A DNA stretch of 16,866 bases from positions 1 through 16,866 of the forward strand of contig JAZKIQ010000002.1 of the NCBI GenBank assembly GCA_040384765.1. The letters are read 5' to 3'. Shown in pieces: positions 2,421 through 16,042 of this stretch (its first letter is position 1; each line of letters starts with the position of its first letter). Position numbers and translations under genes: made by a program. The notes beneath the pieces are model-generated. The model did not search any database. It was not told the DNA's origin and saw only the letters and a program-made list of their open reading frames with translations. The stretch is from Patescibacteria group bacterium (GTDB lineage Bacteria > Patescibacteriota > Minisyncoccia > Phycocordibacterales > JBBUBG01).

Positions 2421-3614
2421 ATGAGCAAAGGCTTCCTTTTAGGCTTTTTTAGGAGCAAAAGAGTATTTCTCGATCATGCTGCGGGTACCCCCGTAGCACC
2501 GGAGGTTCTTCGTGCAATGATTCCTCATCTCAAAGTGGGTGCAGGGAACCCAAGCTCGATACACAAAGAGGGGGTAGAGGCGAAAGGGGTGCTCGAGGCT
2601 GCACGTGGCTCGGTTGCGCGCATGGTGGGTGCGCATGTCGACGAGATCGTCTTTACGAGTGGTGGTACTGAGTCGAATAACCTTGCGATTGAAGGCGTTC
2701 TGCGCTCCGAGGCCGCACTCCGACACGGTAGGCATGTTGTTACCACTGCTTTTGAGCACCATTCGGTCAAGCGCGTACTTCTCGAGTTTGAGAAGGAGGG
2801 GTGGGAGGTTTCGTGGGTTATGCCTGATGATAAAGGTTTAATTGATCCACGCGCCATTTTTGCTGCAATTCGGCCTGACACGGTACTTGTCTCTGTCATT
2901 GGTGGACACAATGAGGTGGGGACGATACAGCCTCTTTCAACTATTGCAAAAGCGATTCGCAAGGCTCGCACGGGAGCTTTCCCTTATTTTCATACTGACG
3001 CGTGCCAGCTTGCTGGAGCAGTTCCATTTTCTGTTGTCTCCTCGGGAGTGGATCTTGCTTCGTTTAATTCCCATAAGATGTACGGTCCTTCGGGGGCGGG
3101 AGCGCTCTTTGTGCGCCGCTCGGTGGCTCTTCGGCCAGTGATACTTGGTGGTGGCCAGGAGAAGGGTGTACGAGCAGGGACAGAAAATCTGCCATCGCTC
3201 TTTGGCTTTGCCGCTGCATGCGAGCTCTTTAGAGAAGAAGGTGCTGTGCGGGAAAAGAGGATGACTAGGCTTCGTGACCAAGCTATAGAAAAACTACTTA
3301 CCATAGAGGGTTCTCATCTTGTCGGGGATCGGGCAGATCGTTTGCCGGGCCATATCAGCATCTCCTTTGCAGGCGTCGAGGCAGAACAGCTGGTGATCGA
3401 GCTTGATAGGGTGGGTATCGCAGTCTCTTCGGGGTCGGCCTGTTCCACCGGAGAGAATACTGCCTCCTATGCTATACTGGCCCTCAGAAAGTCCGAAGAG
3501 GAGGCAAAAGGTACTCTTCGCATAACACTCGGTCGAGAAACCCGAAAGGGCGATCTCGATAGGCTCATGCGCGCGCTCCCGCCGATACTCAAAAAGCTCC
3601 GAAGATTCAGCTGA
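2421..3614 (+). CDS. iscS: Cysteine desulfurase (IscS/NifS, group I)
   Basis: FLDHAAGTP, GNPSSIH, FTSGGTESNN, HTDACQ, SHKMYGP (PLP lysine), SSGSACS (catalytic Cys). Start moved to ATG 2421 to avoid overlap with the divergent gene. Confidence 0.92.
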   Translation: MSKGFLLGFFRSKRVFLDHAAGTPVAPEVLRAMIPHLKVGAGNPSSIHKEGVEAKGVLEAARGSVARMVGAHVDEIVFTSGGTESNNLAIEGVLRSEAALRHGRHVVTTAFEHHSVKRVLLEFEKEGWEVSWVMPDDKGLIDPRAIFAAIRPDTVLVSVIGGHNEVGTIQPLSTIAKAIRKARTGAFPYFHTDACQLAGAVPFSVVSSGVDLASFNSHKMYGPSGAGALFVRRSVALRPVILGGGQEKGVRAGTENLPSLFGFAAACELFREEGAVREKRMTRLRDQAIEKLLTIEGSHLVGDRADRLPGHISISFAGVEAEQLVIELDRVGIAVSSGSACSTGENTASYAILALRKSEEEAKGTLRITLGRETRKGDLDRLMRALPPILKKLRRFS

Positions 3615-8842: not shown

Positions 8843-9325
8843 ATGGAACGAACTCGTAGGACCCGGGTGCTCGTCGGGAGCTCTCAAGATCCCATAACAC
8901 TTCAGCTTATGGGCGTCGTGCATGCTCGGCTCGAACAGATTCGACCGGAGTACGAGCTGGACACGCTGTTCACCTCGAGCTCGAGCGAGCTGTTTGGGCA
9001 GCTCGTATTCCGCGAGCCGACGCTCGTCATCTCTCTTGCGCGGGTAGAGGATCCAGACAAGCCATCTGTGCCTGTACCGATTCCCGAGTTCGCTGCACGA
9101 GTGAAGTACACGTTTCGCAAATCCTTCTTCGTGGTCGCTACGGGTATAGATATCCCGGGTGTACGCGAAAGCCCCTCTGTCGACGCAATGGTCCTGATCA
9201 CTCCGGACTCAAGCGTCGAAACGATGGCGCGGCTCCTCGCTCACGACAAGCTCGCAGAGCTTTGGAATCTGCACCTTCCCAACTACACCGTGTTCGAAAA
9301 GAAGCACGCGCACAGTGCCGCGTAG
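8843..9325 (+). CDS. Hypothetical protein, possible degenerate receiver (CheY-like) domain
   Basis: GGGGGAG RBS before ATG 8843; beta/alpha pattern RVLV...EPTLVIS...IPEFAARVK...FVVATG...VDAMVL echoes REC domains, but the acidic residues are missing. Confidence 0.6.
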   Translation: MERTRRTRVLVGSSQDPITLQLMGVVHARLEQIRPEYELDTLFTSSSSELFGQLVFREPTLVISLARVEDPDKPSVPVPIPEFAARVKYTFRKSFFVVATGIDIPGVRESPSVDAMVLITPDSSVETMARLLAHDKLAELWNLHLPNYTVFEKKHAHSAA

Positions 9326-9376: not shown

Positions 9377-10231
9377 TTAAAAAACTATTCGTGCGGTTAT
9401 GCCCGCAGGTACCGCGTATCCCTCTTTTGGGGTGAGTCCAAGTTCTTCAATGTGAACCACCGAAGGATTTTTAAAGACCGATTCAATCATGTTTGAAAGC
9501 GTCGTTTGTGAAAAGCCTGTGGTGTACGAACTGATGATAAGAAAAAGGGGCTTTTCTGAAAGTAGGCCACGAGCTCCCTCAATGAGCTCCAGGATATGAT
9601 CTTCTAATTTCCACACCTCTCCCTTTGCTCCGCGTCCATACGAAGGAGGGTCCATGACGATGGCATCATATTTTGCGCCTCGACGGGCCTCTTTGGCGAT
9701 AAATTTAAGAGCATCATCGACGAGCCAGCGCACGGGCTTGTCGGAAAGATTCGAAAGTGCTGAGTTCTCTTTTGCCCACTCTACGATGCCGCTCGCGGCA
9801 TCGAGGTGGGTTACTTCGGCCCCAGCGCTTGCTGCTGCAAGAGTTGCACCACCTGTGTAGGCAAAGAGGTTGAGAAGGCGAATAGGGCGCTTGGCGGCCC
9901 CTATCTGCGCGCGAATCCATTCCCAGTTTGCTGCCTGTTCAGGGAATATGCCTGTGTGTTTAAAGAGTGTCGGCTTTAGTTTGAAGGTGAGTGAGCCGTA
10001 TATCACGGTCCATTCGTCGGGCATGGCGCTCCCTTCACGCTTTTTCCATTTTCCCCCTTTCTCTCCGCGCGTAAACTGGGCATCAGCCTTTTCCCAAAGC
10101 TCGGGTTTTTGTTTTGACCACAGCGCTTGCGGTTCTGGCCGAGCAAGGATATATGCACCCCAGCGTTCAAGCTTTTGTTTGTCGCCCGAGTCTAGAAGTT
10201 CGTAGTCCGCCCAGTTTTGAGGAGTGATCAT
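9377..10231 (-). CDS. Class I SAM-dependent methyltransferase (RlmI/RlmK-like family)
   Basis: DYELLDSG...KLERWG...RPEPQALW, KHTGIFPEQ, LLNLFAYTGG (motif I), YDAIVMDPPSYGRG. Start taken as ATG 10231 because the ORF-track extension crosses the att junction. Confidence 0.9.
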   Translation of the reverse strand: MITPQNWADYELLDSGDKQKLERWGAYILARPEPQALWSKQKPELWEKADAQFTRGEKGGKWKKREGSAMPDEWTVIYGSLTFKLKPTLFKHTGIFPEQAANWEWIRAQIGAAKRPIRLLNLFAYTGGATLAAASAGAEVTHLDAASGIVEWAKENSALSNLSDKPVRWLVDDALKFIAKEARRGAKYDAIVMDPPSYGRGAKGEVWKLEDHILELIEGARGLLSEKPLFLIISSYTTGFSQTTLSNMIESVFKNPSVVHIEELGLTPKEGYAVPAGITARIVF

Positions 10232-10235
10232 GTTG

Positions 10236-10364
10236 CGAGGGCTAGTACAGGACGTTCGAACCTTTTGCGACGATCCTGCCAATGAAGAAACGATAGCAAC
10301 AATGAGGAAGATCGTCGAGGATATCAATCCTGATTCTGTTTCTAGTCATCTAAAATCTCCTTAA
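10236..10364 (+). pseudogene. Displaced C-terminal tail of the serine recombinase (RGLVQDVRTFCDDPANEE...KSP*)
   Basis: In the same frame across the GCGAGGGC core as the 14729-14840 fragment; 'V.DVRT' resembles tails I recall from CPR recombinases. Confidence 0.6.
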
Positions 10365-10701
10365 GCAACTGTTCAGGATCTTCGGACGCTCCACGTCCGG
10401 TCCATATATCCCACACATACCAGAGTCCCAGAAAGGCAACTGCGCTGATGTAAATCCCACGAAGCGTATCTGCGCTGATCATCCCAATATCGGGAAACGT
10501 CGATGAGATCGCTGGAATGGCCATAACCATTGCTACTAGTGCGTCACGTGGACGAACCTTTCTCTTCGTTGTGGACGAAAAGCGATGAAGTTTTAGGAGC
10601 AGTTCAGCTGTTTCTATCTTTATCCACGGGCGTTGTCGGTATGTCACCGTATGCCGCCGATGCGTTCCTGCTGGGCTCCTTTTTTGGGGTTTACCCGGCA
10701 T
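10342..10701 (-). CDS. Hypothetical 2-TM membrane protein (119 aa)
   Basis: Basic N-terminus; hydrophobic segments ALVAMVMAIPAISS and GIYISAVAFLGLWYVW; starts 2 nt after the upstream stop. Confidence 0.75.
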   Translation of the reverse strand: MPGKPQKRSPAGTHRRHTVTYRQRPWIKIETAELLLKLHRFSSTTKRKVRPRDALVAMVMAIPAISSTFPDIGMISADTLRGIYISAVAFLGLWYVWDIWTGRGASEDPEQLLKEILDD

Positions 10702-10703
10702 TG

Positions 10704-11243
10704 TTAGAGGTTGCTCTTTACCAGTGAATCTAGAATTCCCTTGAGCGCTGTAGCTTCGAATTCATTGATATCACGCGGAACGTAAATGGTGAATTTCGTG
10801 CCTGGTCGAAGTGAGAGCTCTATTCGATGCATGTCTGCTCCTGTGGATATGATCGGAGAATTCGGCGCTATTGTGCCCTCGGGTTCGACGGTGCTCTTGC
10901 CGCTCGCTGATTTCGATACACGCTTTACGGATTTATAATTCCAGCTAGCCATCTTTGTTGGATCTACTCCGTAACGGTTGAAGTCAGATACGGTCTTCGT
11001 TACTCGGGATCTATACGCGGCCAAAGAGCTGGCGCTCATCGATGCGCTATTGTGCCGGCATACATTCTGGTAAATGGGCTCAATATTAGCGGTGAATTTG
11101 TCCAGTGAGTCTCGTTCCTCATCGTTCAGTTCCTTCTCAAACAGTTTCAGTGCTGCTCGCAGACCTTGAGCGGTACTCTCGGGGTACTTTCGGTTACGTA
11201 CAGCTGTATCTACGAAGGCGTATAGATCTTGAAATGTCGGCAT
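10704..11243 (-). CDS. Hypothetical protein (179 aa), integrase core-binding (SAM-like) N-domain plus small beta-beta-alpha C-domain
   Basis: YPESTAQGLRAALKLF and MSASSLAAYRSRV helices, S/K-rich linker, HRIELSLRPGTKFTIYVPRDINEFEA. ATG 11243 follows a promoter; the ORF-track extension is likely non-coding. Confidence 0.75.
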   Translation of the reverse strand: MPTFQDLYAFVDTAVRNRKYPESTAQGLRAALKLFEKELNDEERDSLDKFTANIEPIYQNVCRHNSASMSASSLAAYRSRVTKTVSDFNRYGVDPTKMASWNYKSVKRVSKSASGKSTVEPEGTIAPNSPIISTGADMHRIELSLRPGTKFTIYVPRDINEFEATALKGILDSLVKSNL

Positions 11244-11270
11244 GGCAAAAAGGTTACTTGATTTGCCTCT

Positions 11271-11306
11271 AGTATAATCCAACACTTCTAATTGTCTATA
11301 TAGACA
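11271..11306 (-). promoter_or_regulatory. Promoter with a perfect 14-bp palindrome over the -35 box
   Basis: Minus strand TAGACA (11293-11298), 16 nt, TATACT (11271-11276); palindrome TGTCTATATAGACA at 11293-11306. Confidence 0.65.
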
Positions 11307-11396
11307 GATAGACGCAGATGTATTGTAAGTGCTGCGTAGGCGCGATGTGGATACTCTGTCTGCATGACATATAGATATATCGAAGAAGGACCTCTT

Positions 11397-11507
11397 ATGA
11401 ATTGCCCCGACCGGGCTCAGGAGTGGTTTGAGATCGTCCTTGAGGTGATACTGCAGGAAGAGCGAGTAGCTGGAACGATGGCGGATGGTAGCGCGCACTC
11501 AGTATGA
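11397..11507 (+). CDS. 36-aa ORF coupled to the recombinase start
   Basis: MNCPDRAQEWFEIVLEVILQEERVAGTMADGSAHSV*; GAAGGA upstream; stop overlaps ATG 11504 (ATGA). Confidence 0.45.
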   Translation: MNCPDRAQEWFEIVLEVILQEERVAGTMADGSAHSV

Positions 11508-11635
11508 GCGGGCACATGCGGAGATTCGTGGTAGCGTACTCGCGAGTTTCCTCGTCCCACCAGAGCGAACGCGGAGCATCACTCTTCGAGCAGCGTGCCG
11601 CAATCGAGCGAGTGGCAGATCGTGACGGTGCTGAT
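11504..11635 (+). pseudogene. N-terminal fragment of a large serine recombinase
   Basis: VAYSRVSSSHQSERGASLFEQRAAIERVADRDG matches the Y-x-RVS...Q...G.SL..Q catalytic motif. Similarity stops after ~43 codons although the frame stays open to 12226. Confidence 0.8.
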
Positions 11636-11690
11636 GCCAATTCAATCTTCGACACCTTCGGCAGCATGTTGCTTTGTCAGAGTTCAATGA

Positions 11691-11910
11691 ACGTACGTGA
11701 ATCCCTCAGAAGATATCGGGGAGGCGTGGAAGGTTGTTCGGCGATTCGGCCAAGACAACTGCGCAAGTACGAGCCAGATTGGCTTAGAGACGTTCAACAC
11801 GGTGCACTGGGCCAAGTCGCGAGGATGACTGGTGGAACATGCGAGGCCACGGTTCTTGCCCTTAGTCGCGCAATTCGGGCCGAACTCGGACTCAATCCCC
11901 TGGAAGACCT
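11691..11910 (+). pseudogene. Possible frameshifted phage ABA-sandwich/BC1872-like fragment
   Basis: NPSEDIGEAWKVV in one frame and ATVLALSRAIRAELG in another resemble the P(S/T).DI..AW.VV and A..LAI.RA.L motifs. Confidence 0.35.
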
Positions 11911-12419
11911 GCGGGTCTCCTCCCTTGCTCTCCCCCTAAGAGATTATCGAATGACTCAGGGGGGGCGCACATCTCCGGAGAAGGTTCACCGAAGCGCGTT
12001 GCGTAGTGGAGCCTTGGTGCTACAAGAAGCTGCATTGATGCACCAGCTCTATGCATTTCCACGGCCCCCGGATTCTTGTGCCGATAGACCTCGTTCCTTC
12101 GATGGAAAGCCTCGATCGTTGTCAGTTCTTCGACGCCACCAGGCGCTTGCGAGGTACCTTTGTTCGAGATATGAGGCTCGCAAAGTAGAGAGGGGCTGGC
12201 TTGAGAACTGGCAGTTAAGCAGCTGAAACGTGCGACTATAACCCCAGCTCAGTACAAGGAAATGTGTGGATTTCAAGTGGGAGCTCGGTCCGGTGCGGAC
12301 AAAACGGGTTGGCTGCCCAATGTGGCACCAATCAGCAACCCGTATGGCGACTAATTTGACTTACTCATGAGGCGCGATATGATGCTTATAGATAGGCTTG
12401 GTGATGTTTACAATTCACA

Positions 12420-12857
12420 GTGGTGGGAGGGGGCGATACTAAATTGTTTGAGTCCTTTGATTCAGTTGATCTTGCTCATGGTCGAAGGATTATCGAGCAA
12501 GTGTTTCTTTCCAGGTCAAAGTCATCTAGACAGCGAGCTCTAAATGCTCTCGCAAGGATAGACTTAGAAGCCATGGTGTTCGCCCTGGTGTCCACGGTAT
12601 TCGACCCATTTGTTCACGAAGAGATAGTGGACGATATCCGGCTTTTTCTGAGAGAGTGCTTTCTGAGGTGCGAGTGGCTCACAAATCACGCACGAAAGCA
12701 GGATAGAGCACGGCCATGCGCAAGGGCATTCCTCTCTCCGGTGTCTGTTGGCGGATTTACCGGACTAGCTCACATGCTGCATTCAACGGAGAATCTCAAG
12801 GACTTTAGAGCGATCCTTTTGAAAACTCCATACTACCCGACCAACCAGAGACCATGA
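12420..12857 (+). CDS. Hypothetical ORF, possibly a remnant
   Basis: 145-aa open frame with a helical-looking first half; no recognisable motif. Confidence 0.25.
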   Translation: MVGGGDTKLFESFDSVDLAHGRRIIEQVFLSRSKSSRQRALNALARIDLEAMVFALVSTVFDPFVHEEIVDDIRLFLRECFLRCEWLTNHARKQDRARPCARAFLSPVSVGGFTGLAHMLHSTENLKDFRAILLKTPYYPTNQRP

Positions 12858-13204
12858 TCCTGTATCTCCTCCGGGACTGATGCAATGAACCACGCTGATT
12901 TTTTGAGCGTGGTTTTCTTCGTCTTGGTCTGTAAGCCTTTCTCTCCTGAGATGGATTGGAAGGAACCGGCAAGACTGCTCGACTCGACCCTGCTTCGATC
13001 ATCTTCTTGAGGTAGTTACCGCCGCTCGGAGGCGCAGGTTGACTTGAGCGGGTTCAACCGAGAGCCGTGCAAGGGCACGAGTTCAAGGCCGACGACTCGC
13101 TTTGGCAGATCTTGGAATTGCCGTCAGGCTTGATGATGCTCGGGGCGTTGTTACGCGGCGCGCTCTGCCCGGGGGTCTGCAGCAAATTTGAACCGGGTGA
13201 GTTT

Positions 13205-13244
13205 CGTTCCGCGTTCCCTGCGTAGGGGTGGGAACGCGGGAACG
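13205..13244. repeat. Inverted repeat CGTTCCGCGTTCCC-11 nt-GGGAACGCGGGAACG
   Basis: The arms match except for one indel, and each arm holds two GTTCC units. Confidence 0.7.
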
Positions 13245-14050
13245 GTTTCGTGGGTGAGCGCATGACTCGGCGAGGCTCGTTTGAATTTGAAGAGGATGCT
13301 CGTGCTGGATGATAGGTTCCGTGACCTCGCCGCGGAAGATCTCGGCCAGACGGCCGTGATCCTCGACCCACCGGACAGCGGCGGCGCCCTCCACGACGAG
13401 CGCGCGGCATCTGGCGGCCTCCCTGGTGGTTGCACGACAAAGGGAGCCGGGATATACTGCGCAAGTCCGGTCATCCCCTGGTTGAACGGATAGGTCCTTG
13501 TTTCGCCAAGCTTCCAACGGCCGCGGCGGAACGGGACCTTTATTTTATCGAACCCTCCTGCTTCCCCGATCATCAGTCCGACTGGCGCATCAGCGTGCCA
13601 CGTCGGCTTTTTTGTTCATGCTACCGTCCGCATGCGAGCTCAGCCACTCGTCGATCAACATTCTTGAGGTATCAATCAACAATCCAACGATTAGAAGACG
13701 CGGACGTTTTTGTCCCAGTGCGGTATATCTAAAGGGCGTAGCGAGTTCCTTGATCTGCGGAAGCCCAAGAGGAGTGACATCCGAATGCCGCACGACCCGC
13801 GTCGCCAAGCCCGGGGCATTGGCCTGGAGCCGAGCCCTAGTCCCGAACCGCTTCCAGGATTGGAAGAACCCAACTCCGCGCACAACCAGGATTCTCAGGC
13901 GCCATTACAGAATTCGCGCGATCGGTCGATGACTGCGTCAGATCTGCACCAGAGCTTCAGCGCGAGCGGGAAAGGACGGGGCGCGTCAAAAAGTGTACAG
14001 TAGGACGCGCCCGAATCTGATACAATGCTTCAATAAGTAACTTCTTACCC

Positions 14051-14578
14051 ATGCCAATCCAAGAGTCTACGAGCTTCGTCAGCAGAGCAACTATCTATAC
14101 GTTTTCTTTCGAAATGCTCGTCGTGGGCGTTGTTGGCATTGGCGCTGCTGGATTGTATCTCTACAATACGATCCACCTTTTTGACGCGTACCCCCTCACT
14201 GAGAGCTTGCGAGAACTTCTGTGTGGACTCGGAATCCTTGCGTCCGCGGTGTTGTTTCTTGCGACGTCAAGGCAAGCGTTCCGGCTTCGCACCGCTGAGC
14301 CAGAGCGCCTAGCGCATAAAACGTACCGGATAGCGCTCTTGCTTGTTGTTGCAGGATCAATCCTCGCCTACGCGGGAATCGCCTACTTCGTTTCGTTAGT
14401 CGGCGTGCTTCCTACCGGGTGCCTTTGGGGAGCCCCCTGCATCCAGCAAACCCTACCGCTGTGGCCGCTATTGACAATCCATGTAATAGCCGCCTCGGTC
14501 TGCTCCACGCCAGCGGTAACTTTGTCGATCTTGGAAAAGTGCGGAACCTCTAGGGGGCCACAAGATAGTTCCGTGTAG
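14051..14578 (+). CDS. Hypothetical 4-TM membrane protein (island cargo)
   Basis: 175 aa with four hydrophobic segments; extended -10 TGATACAAT at 14018-14026. Confidence 0.6.
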   Translation: MPIQESTSFVSRATIYTFSFEMLVVGVVGIGAAGLYLYNTIHLFDAYPLTESLRELLCGLGILASAVLFLATSRQAFRLRTAEPERLAHKTYRIALLLVVAGSILAYAGIAYFVSLVGVLPTGCLWGAPCIQQTLPLWPLLTIHVIAASVCSTPAVTLSILEKCGTSRGPQDSSV

Positions 14579-14728
14579 GACTCAAGAGGCCATCTAGCGC
14601 CGAAGTGTGCATGGAGGTTTGCTTCGTGGGAATGATCCATGGCCGAGTTGCCTGCATTGAAGCGGATCGTGATCGAAGGATCACTTCTCGAAAGCTCTGT
14701 CCGCAGATATCGCGAGAAGTTTTCGTCC

Positions 14729-14840
14729 GTCACCGCGTGCGGTTCGAACCCTACTCTGAGAGAGAAAAAACTCTTCATTGAAGCCAGGAAACCGTTCAGC
14801 TTCAATGACAAAATGGATGCACTTCCTGAAAAGCGAGGGC
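14729..14840 (+). pseudogene. Near-C-terminal fragment of the serine recombinase running into the att site
   Basis: CGSNPTLREKKLFIEARKPF resembles the GSN..L..KKL.I.A.KPF ending I recall from CPR large serine recombinases; it reads into antisense tRNA-Trp. Confidence 0.6.
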
Positions 14841-14906
14841 ACCAGGATTCGAACCTGGAAGTTGGGATTTGGAATCCCACAGTTTAACCGTTGAGCTTAT
14901 GCCCCC
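14834..14906 (-). tRNA. tRNA-Trp (CCA)
   Basis: Acceptor GGGGGCA/TGCCCTC plus G, anticodon arm TGGGA-TT CCA AA-TCCCA, CCAGG-TTCGAAT-CCTGG; no encoded CCA tail. Confidence 0.95.
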
Positions 14907-14923
14907 TCGTGAGTTCTTATCCT

Positions 14924-14963
14924 AAACGAAAATCTCCCCTCAGTCGAGGGGAGATTTTCGTTT
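14924..14963 (-). terminator. Terminator after rpmG
   Basis: Perfect 18-bp stem AAACGAAAATCTCCCCTC-AGTC-GAGGGGAGATTTTCGTTT. Confidence 0.8.
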
Positions 14964-14966
14964 GCC

Positions 14967-15125
14967 TTAAATCTTCTTCTCCTTATGCACCGTTACCTTG
15001 CGGCACCAGTTGCAAAATTTCTTAAATTCAAGCTTCCGCTCAACTTTCTTGGCGTTTTTACGGGTGTAGTAGTTGTCCCGTTTGCACTTTGTGCAGTTTA
15101 GTTTTCGAAGGAGTTCCTTGGCCAT
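14967..15125 (-). CDS. rpmG: 50S ribosomal protein L33 (Zn-binding C4 form)
   Basis: 52 aa, LNCTKCKRDNYYTRKN...KLEFKKFCNWCRKVTVHKE; ATG at 15125. Confidence 0.96.
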   Translation of the reverse strand: MAKELLRKLNCTKCKRDNYYTRKNAKKVERKLEFKKFCNWCRKVTVHKEKKI

Positions 15126-15145
15126 CGTTTTTGTGTGTAGTAGAG

Positions 15146-15174
15146 ATGATACTATAGCCCGGCTTGTTTGACAA
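15146..15174 (-). promoter_or_regulatory. Putative rpmG promoter overlapping the miaA stop
   Basis: TTGTCA, 17 nt, TATCAT on the minus strand. Confidence 0.55.
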
Positions 15175-16042
15175 CCAGGGAGGCCTCCTCTGGCGACTGG
15201 ACCCAATGGATCCTCTTATTTCGCCGAAACCAGGTTCGTTGTTTCTTTGCGTAGTCGCAAATGGCAAGGAAGAGCTCTTTTTGCATCTCTGCCTTGGTCA
15301 AAATTCCCTGGAGGTACTGGGCAATAAAGCGATATTCGAGCCCGAATAAATCAAGCCGCTCCCAGCTGAGGCCGACTGTGTCGTGCAGCCCCTGCACCTC
15401 CTCAATCATCCCCTCGAGTAGGCGTTCGCCCAGTCTTTTTTCAATTTTTTTCTTTAGCTCTTCGGGGGGAAGTGAGATACCTATGAAAAGCGGCTCATAG
15501 GGAGTTTTGGTCAATCGAGCTTCAGGTACGGCACCAAGAGCTTCTGCGATCTCAAGGGCTCGCACGAGTCTTCGAGGGTTGTTTGGGTCGATGTTCGCAG
15601 CTCTCCGTGGATCTTTGGTACAAAGCATTTCATAGAGTTCGATTGTCGTTTTCTCGGTAAGTCGTGTACGCAGTTCGGGGTTCGGAGGTACCTCTGGGAT
15701 AGAGATACCATCTATGAGCGCATCGATATAGTAGCCAGTGCCGCCGCATACAATCGGAAGCTTCCCTCGCTTCTGGATGCCTTCTATGGCTACTCTTGCG
15801 TCTCTGGTGTAGTCGTTCACGGTGTACTGGCTCGCTGGTTCGGCTATGTCGATGAGATGATGGGGGATCCCTTGCATCTCCTCTGGTCGTATTTTTCCAG
15901 TACCGATATCCAAGTTTCTATACACCTGTCGTGAGTCGGCAGAGACAATTTCACCATCGAGCGCGCGCGCAAGCGAAACAGCAAGCGCGCTTTTTCCGCT
16001 TGCGGTAGGGCCTACAATAACGATCACCTGATGAGTTGACAT
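15152..16042 (-). CDS. miaA: tRNA dimethylallyltransferase
   Basis: GPTASGKS, SADSRQVYRNLDIGTGK, PHHLID, VCGGTGYY, RRLVRALE, YAKKQRTWFR. Confidence 0.97.
   Translation of the reverse strand: MSTHQVIVIVGPTASGKSALAVSLARALDGEIVSADSRQVYRNLDIGTGKIRPEEMQGIPHHLIDIAEPASQYTVNDYTRDARVAIEGIQKRGKLPIVCGGTGYYIDALIDGISIPEVPPNPELRTRLTEKTTIELYEMLCTKDPRRAANIDPNNPRRLVRALEIAEALGAVPEARLTKTPYEPLFIGISLPPEELKKKIEKRLGERLLEGMIEEVQGLHDTVGLSWERLDLFGLEYRFIAQYLQGILTKAEMQKELFLAICDYAKKQRTWFRRNKRIHWVQSPEEASLVVKQAGL

Follow-up and report, generated by a model that had tools for sequence, protein, structure and literature searches.

The stretch analysed here (the window, 16,866 nucleotides) corresponds to the first 16,866 bases of a 47-kb contig from a patescibacterial genome of 0.82 Mb (12 contigs, 99.8% complete). 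An island lies in this window, at 10235–14856, between the tRNA-Trp gene and a host methyltransferase gene. It is best explained as the fossil of one, possibly two tandem, integrative elements belonging to a family of large serine recombinases (LSRs) that use the 3' ends of tRNA genes, a reading to which we give a probability of about three in four. The architecture put forward in the original prediction, with an attachment site lying in the 3' coding end of the recombinase gene itself, is right and general. The window is in itself an ordinary fossil, and the new part is the pattern seen at the level of the family. It is commonly considered that tRNA genes are the attachment sites of tyrosine integrases, a textbook rule that is contradicted by an LSR family targeting tRNA genes.

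The island at tRNA-Trp and its recombinase remnants

An insertion at tRNA-Trp is supported by a comparison of the window genome with three members of the same family (G001, G002 and G003). In G001, the gene of ribosomal protein L33, tRNA-Trp, about 82 nt and then the methyltransferase gene follow one another, and the window has 4.6 kb in the place of this short spacer. In G003, an exact 18-nt repeat of the tRNA-Trp 3' end is found about 120 nt after the tRNA, followed by one gene. The two copies lie at 3179–3196 and 3320–3337 of the corresponding locus (L008), the downstream one 7 nt before the ATG of an ATPase-like gene, and the pair resembles the minimal scar that an element using the target of the window island would leave. 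In G002, 1.9 kb with three other open reading frames (ORFs) separate tRNA-Trp from the methyltransferase, and no repeat of the tRNA-Trp end of this genome was detected (best score 17). Because the four family members differ there, the region downstream of tRNA-Trp appears to be a variable hot spot in this host family. The composition of the island is foreign, with host-trained hexamer scores of at most 0.13 for every island ORF and of 0.23–0.62 for the flanking genes. A DNA self-comparison showed no second copy of island DNA elsewhere in the genome.

The boundaries of the island are given by two repeats (Table 1). The tRNA-Trp gene is the only one of this kind among the 43 tRNA genes of the genome, and an intact single-copy tRNA gene at one end with a displaced, degenerate 3' fragment at the other is the signature described for Islander elements. 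The sequence statements of the original prediction all hold: both repeats are present, 4598 bp apart, an ORF ends in the antisense strand of the tRNA, and the methyltransferase ATG at 10231, which agrees with the N-termini of its homologs, is 3 nt away from the left repeat. The alignment of the two copies begins at the last base of the tRNA and includes 8 + 1 + 5 + 9 matching bases (23), one mismatch and three gaps, through which the left copy carries 5 extra bases in all. Scores of at least 24 against the last 40 nt of the tRNA were obtained for 27 of 16,430 overlapping 150-nt chunks of the genome, both strands included, a count that takes in tRNA-Trp itself and other tRNA genes. The left repeat is the best match inside the island; it abuts the synteny breakpoint and has the right orientation.

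Table 1. Coordinates of the features of the island and of its flanks in the window.
Feature	Position	Strand	Remarks
SAM-dependent methyltransferase (SAM, S-adenosylmethionine), rRNA-methyltransferase-like; host gene on the far side of the island	9377–10231	minus	PF10672, E 2.9e-13
Left repeat, attR-like; degenerate displaced copy of the tRNA-Trp 3' end	10235–10263		alignment score 24
p119, small ORF downstream of p179	10342–10701	minus	co-directional with the methyltransferase; no relatives found
p179, intact cargo gene	10707–11243	minus	conserved family, about 175–195 amino acids
Perfect 14-bp palindrome TGTCTATATAGACA	11293–11306		divergent intergenic region between p179 and the recombinase start
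p47, 47-codon ORF	11364–11507	plus	stop overlaps the recombinase ATG (ATGA); no family match
240-codon ORF; start resembling a serine-recombinase N-terminus with the 'YSRVSS' nucleophile region	11504–12226	plus	recombinase-like at about 11528–11695
Candidate internal third copy of the tRNA-Trp 3' end	13069–13081		11/13 bases, anchored at the last base of the tRNA
p175, hydrophobic 175-codon ORF between the remnants	14051–14578	plus	no credible relatives
82-codon ORF; LSR C-terminal remnant	14639–14887	plus	last 55 nt (14833–14887) are antisense tRNA; ends with LPEKRGHQDSNLEVGIWNPTV and a stop
Right repeat, attL-like; last 24 nt of the tRNA (acceptor 3' strand through T arm)	14833–14856		inside the last codons of the recombinase remnant
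tRNA-Trp(cca)	14833–14906	minus	ARAGORN; Rfam RF00005, 48.8 bits
Ribosomal protein L33, host flank	14967–15125	minus	TIGR01023, E 2.4e-16

Two remnants of a recombinase were recognised with a profile of 23 full-length relatives (496 positions, enzymes of 476–587 amino acids), run on six-frame pieces of the region 9900–15300. Only three pieces have positive scores. The two best are on the plus strand and in the right order, and the third (3.0 bits, minus strand, 14094–14195) was disregarded. The first remnant is the start of the 240-codon ORF, matching profile positions 4–37 at 11528–11629 with 13.4 bits. Positions 1–34 of the 145 in PF00239 (Resolvase) match at 11528–11638, with E-values of 0.02–0.06, under the curated cut-off. 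The tblastn searches with the LSRs of relatives gave E-values of 1.3e-5 and 2.8e-6, the similarity reaching residue 64, and the ORF also matches the integrase family phrog_95 (E 0.0048). The recognisable N-terminus thus covers about 34–55 codons from 11528; residues 50–240 match only themselves among 799 candidates in a word-index search.

The second remnant is found in the 82-codon ORF (six-frame piece 14636–14884), which matches profile positions 437–479 of 496 at 14705–14833 with 10.4 bits, about 43 codons being recognisable. The aligned segment GSNPTLREKKLFIEARKPF holds the near-invariant 'SN' of the GSN motif (S449/N450 in the numbering of the G013 enzyme described below, alignment A2). 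The T-loop is read as 'DSN', as it is in 11 of the 21 overlapping relatives of the order. None of 5000 shuffles of this ORF reaches 10.4 bits (best 6.6), and it is the sole match when the 101 antisense ORFs running across tRNA 3' ends in the genome are compared (E 9.7e-4, the next one being at 4.4). Over the 11,811 pieces of the whole genome, the N- and C-terminal pieces rank fourth and fifth, with E-values of 0.014 and 0.11, and only the intact LSR of the genome and a small resolvase are placed above them. The ORF ending in the antisense tRNA had been read as the end of a serine recombinase, and on these grounds that reading was correct. A phmmer search with its 82 residues against 1.84 billion representatives returned five proteins at E ≤ 0.001, one of which is the query. 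The other four were rejected: the E-value of the best match comes from six near-identical CarbopepD_reg-like repeats, with 29–31% identity per unit, and the others are giant proteins of 1290–2846 amino acids without recombinase domains.

The gene had initially been described as split by its attachment site. A recombinase gene split there and whole in other respects is not what the window contains: nothing but its two extremities can be recognised, separated by about 3 kb, and the recombinase is dead, reduced to these N- and C-terminal ends. No match to profile positions 38–436 was found in any frame in the approximately 3 kb between the remnants, and none to PF07508 (Recombinase) on the contig. 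The six read-through frames of 10232–14889 (X at stops) contain no recombinase family of Pfam at E ≤ 1, zinc ribbon (PF13408) included, and a tblastn search of the island with the intact LSR of the genome gave nothing below E 0.1. In the absence of recombinase similarity between the remnants, a replacement or a tandem history must therefore be assumed.

Recombinases ending inside tRNA genes in relatives

An intact LSR of 483 amino acids was found, through the weak N-terminal match, in a genome of the same order (G013). Its stop codon lies 19–20 nt inside a convergent tRNA-His gene. At E ≤ 1e-10, this enzyme has matches in 257 of the 401 genomes of the order (a tally including one unpublished genome, G251), and a profile of 14 enzymes matches 178 of 301 genomes across the phylum. 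Among 30 loci of the order, the query locus included, the LSR ORF overlaps the 3' part of a convergent tRNA gene in 21, by 14–287 nt; in four others a contig end interrupts the locus at this point, and there is no overlap in the remaining five. Among the 30 best loci of the phylum, 25 overlap a convergent tRNA gene by 6–294 nt and three are cut, the two without overlap having truncated ORFs. Taking the two samples together, 46 of 60 loci have an LSR that ends within a convergent tRNA gene, and the denominator becomes 53 when the loci cut by contig ends are set aside. The targets include tRNA genes for His, Arg, Glu, Leu, Gln, Phe, Tyr, Ser, Ala, Lys, Asn and Ile, as well as Trp in a viral contig (L187). 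The location of the attachment site within the recombinase's own 3' coding end, as proposed for the window, is thus a trait of the family. The Resolvase, Recombinase and Zn_ribbon_recom domains are all present in the LSRs of L088 and L183, the other relative loci being identified by similarity only.

In a tree of 23 enzymes, those targeting tRNA-Gln cluster together, with two label changes, and none of 500 label shuffles gives as few. Five of these tRNA-Gln LSRs (L072, L074, L077, L078 and L082) belong to five host families, with branch lengths of 0.017–0.03 only. Such near-identical enzymes in five host families indicate recent transfer. Two other closely related enzymes (L080 and L081) are found at different tRNA genes (Tyr and Arg). 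Many LSR matches begin 200–500 nt from a contig end; assemblies seem to be interrupted by the elements, as would be expected of DNA that is polymorphic or present in several copies.

The far end of the elements was searched for repeats in seven relative loci of full 20 kb. In three of them, a repeat begins at most 2 bases from the last base of the tRNA and extends as far as the T-loop, with 19/19 identical nucleotides for an element of 7.9 kb, 18/19 for one of 12.3 kb and 17/19 for one of 3.2 kb. These features suggest the following scheme. The LSR gene is at the tRNA-proximal edge of the element, transcribed toward the tRNA gene and convergent with it. Its stop falls inside or beyond the antisense tRNA, which places the attachment site in the last codons of the recombinase. 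Integration, presumably catalysed by the LSR, would restore the tRNA 3' end from a copy borne by the element, and a displaced copy of 17–19 nt, from the last base of the tRNA into the T-loop, would be left at the far end. As the relatives indicate, the crossover would take place in the T-loop. Excision and integration would then exchange only the extreme, unconserved C-terminal tail of the enzyme. In the window, only p179 and p119 are still gene-like, and the far repeat has gained 5 bases and one mismatch, any order given to these decay events being conjectural.

Several points weigh against a past integration of this type at the window locus. G001 is the only near-empty site, and its spacer is of about 82 nt instead of 3 nt. 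When metagenomes were scanned with the methyltransferase, this yielded 80 loci at 45–55% identity (54 of them with at least 1500 nt of upstream sequence), none of which has tRNA-Trp upstream. No closer empty site was found, and the 3-nt spacing of the empty junction stays a prediction. The left repeat needs three gaps, with 5 extra bases, and the pair is not reported by an ungapped repeat finder. The C-terminal match is short, covering 43 positions with 10.4 bits and an E-value of 0.11 in the whole-genome search space. Without a recombinase body in about 3 kb, the anatomy is not explained by the in-place decay of one gene. Lastly, no far-end repeat was found within 20 kb in three of the seven relative loci (L090, L091 and L095), and that of L087 is weak (11/12).

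One might then suppose that no integration took place at all, the left 'repeat' being a chance match, with its three gaps, and the 4.6 kb an old variable spacer containing recombinase debris. The distance from tRNA-Trp to the methyltransferase, which is variable among the four members of the family, would fit such a view, as would the lack of an empty site in the metagenome scan. It can nevertheless be given hardly any credence. The left match begins at the last base of the tRNA, as in relatives, and coincides with the synteny break. Between the recombinase C-terminus and the tRNA, the overlap has the geometry typical of the family, about 31 residues separating the GSN motif from the tRNA end, compared with about 30 in G013. 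The composition of the island is foreign, and p179 is found in just 2 of 301 genomes of the order.

Within the preferred reading of a fossil element, two histories would be possible: the interior of one gene was replaced, or two elements were inserted in tandem at tRNA-Trp. In the second case, a distal element would extend from 10264 to about 13068, with p119, p179, p47 and a recombinase running from 11504 to near 13069, and a proximal one (about 13082–14832) would retain only a recombinase C-terminus. The candidate third copy of the tRNA end at 13069–13081 is 1565 nt (about 522 codons) past the ATG at 11504, a distance that fits the LSR lengths of the profile set (476–587 amino acids). Matches of 11/13 bases of this type occur 23 times in 1,645,420 genome positions, both strands, so that about 0.06 would be expected in the island on that strand, which speaks for two elements, in what is a post hoc test. 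In the Dehalococcoides precedent considered below, islands are as a rule found in tandem with repeats at their limits, according to the passages of that report bearing on it (PMC3146451), and an extra LSR C-terminal remnant is present at tRNA-Asp inside one of the relative loci (L094). However, the internal match, a short one, was picked out post hoc, and no recombinase similarity remains in any frame at 11700–13069 or 13100–14700, which implies that both bodies must have been lost. The tandem history thus appears possible, with the balance rather against it.

Additional observations were made on the relative loci. In L094 (oriented copy), extra LSR C-terminal fragments lie at 11441–11683 and 17955–18347 in a 12-kb element, one overlapping tRNA-Asp and one on the opposite strand; nested or tandem LSR remnants seem to be common. 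The viral contig L183 resembles an inovirus, its LSR gene coming after Zot-family and Rep G2P genes. In L183 and L185, the last 45 nt or so of the recombinase read like the 3' half of an antisense tRNA, and no full tRNA was found in them; they may correspond to the free attP form. L095 contains two tRNA-Tyr(gta) genes on the same strand (15668–15753 and 19844–19929), 4.2 kb apart, the recombinase overlapping one of them, and its element may carry or duplicate a whole tRNA. In the G013 locus (L056), ARAGORN reports an unusually long tRNA-Ile(gat) of 89 nt at 9189–9277, about 420 nt beyond the recombinase start. An intact 7.9-kb element at tRNA-Glu (L088, 11970–19851, genome G175) has trypsin-like peptidase, SET-domain, cyclodipeptide-synthase-like and RadC-like JAB genes as cargo. 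The window genome itself has an intact LSR of 555 amino acids on another contig (C1, about 89761–92554; L016–L018 and L020), which comes after two small resolvase-domain ORFs of 163 and 136 amino acids on the same strand. This layout resembles that of CcrA/CcrB or DsiA/DsiB; ARAGORN found no tRNA in these loci, and ychF follows.

Exchanged tails and comparison with known systems

The original prediction had drawn attention to C-termini that would depend on the integrated or excised state. When the ends of the elements are joined in silico, the tail of the enzyme is indeed altered in all four relatives tried. The circular-form tails extend 6–77 residues past the repeat and the integrated-form tails 16–41, with neither length nor sequence conserved. 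The overlap with the tRNA gene spans 6–294 nt, and at least two reading frames of the T-loop are used, giving '(D/E)SN' and 'xRT'. State-dependent C-termini are thus real as sequence facts in the LSR family, and confined to an unconserved appendage. This part of the proposal stands, whereas the directionality switch attached to it is unsupported.

The window itself gives a less favourable picture. Both repeats read CGA GGG in the same frame, and a crossover in the first 8 bases leads to ...LPEKRG-LVQDVRTF...KSP, in frame and open for 43 more codons, such an in-frame join having a one-in-three prior. The long joined tail that had been predicted is in this sense correct. It is not robust, since a crossover placed in the T-loop, or past the complete repeat, gives instead a tail ending with HQDSNLLRRSCQ and a stop. 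The 'V.DVRT' element, proposed as a protein motif, did not survive the analysis: 'QDVRT' is the decayed copy of the T-loop repeat, in a reading frame displaced by its insertion of 2 nt, and no homolog carries this tail. Nothing similar to the long 'LVQDVRTF...KSP' tail was found in the loci of relatives or in longer proteins by a word-index search with the 46-residue tail, which is weak evidence. The specific tail of the window is an artefact, due to decay and to the position selected for the crossover.

It was suggested that the attachment site splits the recombinase adaptively, the integrated and excised C-termini setting the direction of recombination. The geometry is indeed strongly conserved (46 of the 53 judgeable LSR loci), the circular forms of three to four relatives end in silico differently from the integrated ones, and the window join in the first 8 bases remains open in frame. 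A role in directionality is nevertheless quite improbable. The tails are free in length and sequence, at least two T-loop frames are used with very variable overlaps, and the long tail of the window, without relatives, vanishes with a T-loop crossover, in a recombinase that is dead. In serine integrases, direction is set by separate directionality factors. Nothing was found in our analyses that would point to a directionality function of the tail. For Dehalococcoides, the authors considered in the passages concerned that the overlapping part is unlikely to be functional, and noted its divergence (PMC3146451). A broader idea would be that a very large family, spreading horizontally among Patescibacteria-type bacteria, using tRNA T-arms as attB and carrying attP in its own last codons, senses its state, the arrangement being more than an accident of packing: integration would rewrite the tail and also place the gene opposite a tRNA gene with strong transcription. 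The level or direction of the recombinase would then be tuned between free and integrated forms by the tail, by convergent tRNA transcription or by both. This also seems unlikely.

The LSR family considered here can be compared with several systems. In SSV1-type archaeal tyrosine integrases, attP lies inside the int gene, and integration, which takes place in a tRNA gene, alters the integrase ORF. The SSV1 integrase, a tyrosine recombinase, is cut into two large parts and inactivated, whereas in the LSR family the exchange is limited to a few, at most a few dozen, unconserved codons at the end of the gene, the catalytic body remaining whole. No Phage_integrase domain was detected in any frame of the island, and the tyrosine catalytic domain of the SSV1 type is thus lacking in it. 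In the integration-dependent immunity of mycobacteriophages, which have a tyrosine integrase, attP is in the repressor gene, the free and integrated forms have different C-termini, and the tail acts as a degradation tag. The swapped protein is there the repressor, and no functional tail is evident in the LSR family. The classical large serine integrases of phages, such as PhiC31 and Bxb1, target protein-coding genes or intergenic sites; the intact LSR relatives share with them the Resolvase, Recombinase and zinc ribbon domains.

The closest precedent is provided by the ssrA islands of Dehalococcoides and their LSR, DsiB. The passages of McMurdie et al. (2011, PMC3146451) that deal with them describe 20-bp repeats, insertion in the T-loop and tandem islands. 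The 3' end of dsiB always overlaps attL and the ssrA 3' end, and the overlapping part is divergent and was thought by the authors to be non-functional. This overlap gives the architecture a precedent among serine recombinases; the original prediction mentioned an attP inside the integrase gene for tyrosine integrases. According to the same passages (PMC3146451), the resemblance extends to the LSR gene at the island edge next to the RNA gene, with its 3' overlap of attL and the RNA gene, to the direct repeat of about 20 bp at the far end, to the T-loop insertion and the tandems, and to a tail divergent in length and sequence. The window ORF at 14639–14887 is convergent with the tRNA and overlaps it by 55 nt, which is the dsiB-type architecture. 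In contrast to the single tmRNA target reported there for dsiB, the family described here uses many tRNA genes, with at least 13 amino-acid identities. In the sections considered, the host of dsiB is of the Chloroflexi type, whereas that of the window is a small genome of the Patescibacteria type. DsiB is also described there with a partner, the small recombinase DsiA, and with an integration module of six genes; in the island, neither a partner nor a small resolvase is seen.

The Islander collection of tDNA islands with tyrosine integrases is presented, in the relevant parts of Hudson et al. (2015, PMC4383910), as islands that lie, with their integrase, between an intact tRNA gene and a displaced fragment of its 3' end. 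As in these islands, attP carries a tRNA fragment restoring the gene (PMC4383910). Unlike in them, the enzyme is of the serine class, and 46 of the 60 LSR loci examined here abut a tRNA gene. No tRNA-targeting serine recombinases were found described in the literature on Patescibacteria or the Candidate Phyla Radiation (CPR), where supplementary tables, for example those of integrases and attachment sites that accompany PMC12884075 or PMC10083194, may hold such data. A term count for a large LSR survey (PMC10083194) gave 0 occurrences of 'tRNA genes'. An inovirus survey (PMC6813254) lists serine recombinases among integration genes and CPR among hosts, the tRNA-overlap arrangement not being described in the part consulted. 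This arrangement is likewise not mentioned in the corresponding excerpts of a paper on patescibacterial phages (PMC13059738).

The family is common in the genomes sampled, in the order as well as in the phylum, and the Dehalococcoides tmRNA case, the only precedent found, would become an example of a general mode of integration. The LSRs would also provide a handle on horizontal transfer in very small genomes, with near-identical enzymes in five host families. They are candidate tools as well, as serine integrases with a short, conserved and symmetric natural target in an RNA gene. The result for the window is more modest: a dead element that is a marker of a past integration, and possibly also the upstream region of the methyltransferase gene.

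Flanking genes and other contents of the island

The L33 gene and miaA are upstream of tRNA-Trp, on the same strand. A perfect 18-bp inverted repeat with a 4-nt loop (14924–14963) between L33 and tRNA-Trp may be a terminator or a processing hairpin. On the other side, the matches of the methyltransferase to the NCBIfam rRNA methyltransferase models are all under their cut-offs, and this gene is present in 15 of 41 related genomes. In the Rfam search of 10100–15000 at E ≤ 1, only the tRNA and a sub-threshold CRISPR-repeat match (11889–11926) were obtained. The promoter and terminator scans gave counts no higher than in shuffled sequences.

The Pfam, PHROGs and NCBIfam searches of the island ORFs gave only weak matches to integrase N-termini and phrog_2602 for p179, and no credible relatives of p119, p47, p145 and p175 were found with these three collections or by tblastn. 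When all island ORFs were compared by tblastn with 25 p179 loci and 39 LSR loci, only the recombinase N-terminus gave matches. In a protein atlas, p179 and p175 fall in unnamed clusters only, with p175 under 0.9. The hydrophobic p175 overlaps a minus-strand ORF of 131–165 codons (14383–14880). The hexamer score was dropped as a means to choose the real ORF at 14051–14887, all island ORFs being low. The segment 13000–13600 has 62% G+C compared with 52% for the genome; none of its ORFs, several of which are long and overlapping on both strands, has a family.

The palindrome at 11293–11306, which is overlapped by the inverted repeat I15, is a candidate operator. Hydrophobic stretches read by eye in p119 suggest a membrane protein. 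The genes p119 and p179, which share the orientation of the methyltransferase gene, may be co-transcribed with it and may now supply its upstream signals.

The p179 protein, the only one of the island to belong to a family, has 77 relatives of 126–212 amino acids at E ≤ 0.01 among 124 candidates, self included, its distribution in the order being sporadic as noted above. It matches phrog_2602, of unknown function, with an E-value of 1.8e-4, and weakly Phage_int_SAM_1 (E 0.083). Its interpretation as a truncated tyrosine integrase was dropped, as there is only this weak SAM-like match and no catalytic domain. In 5 of 25 loci (L045, L047, L052, L053 and L054), the p179 homolog starts 85–110 nt past the 3' end of a co-directional tRNA gene (Gly or His) that closes a tRNA cluster. 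In one further locus (L032), it lies 1 kb from a 5'-truncated serine recombinase.

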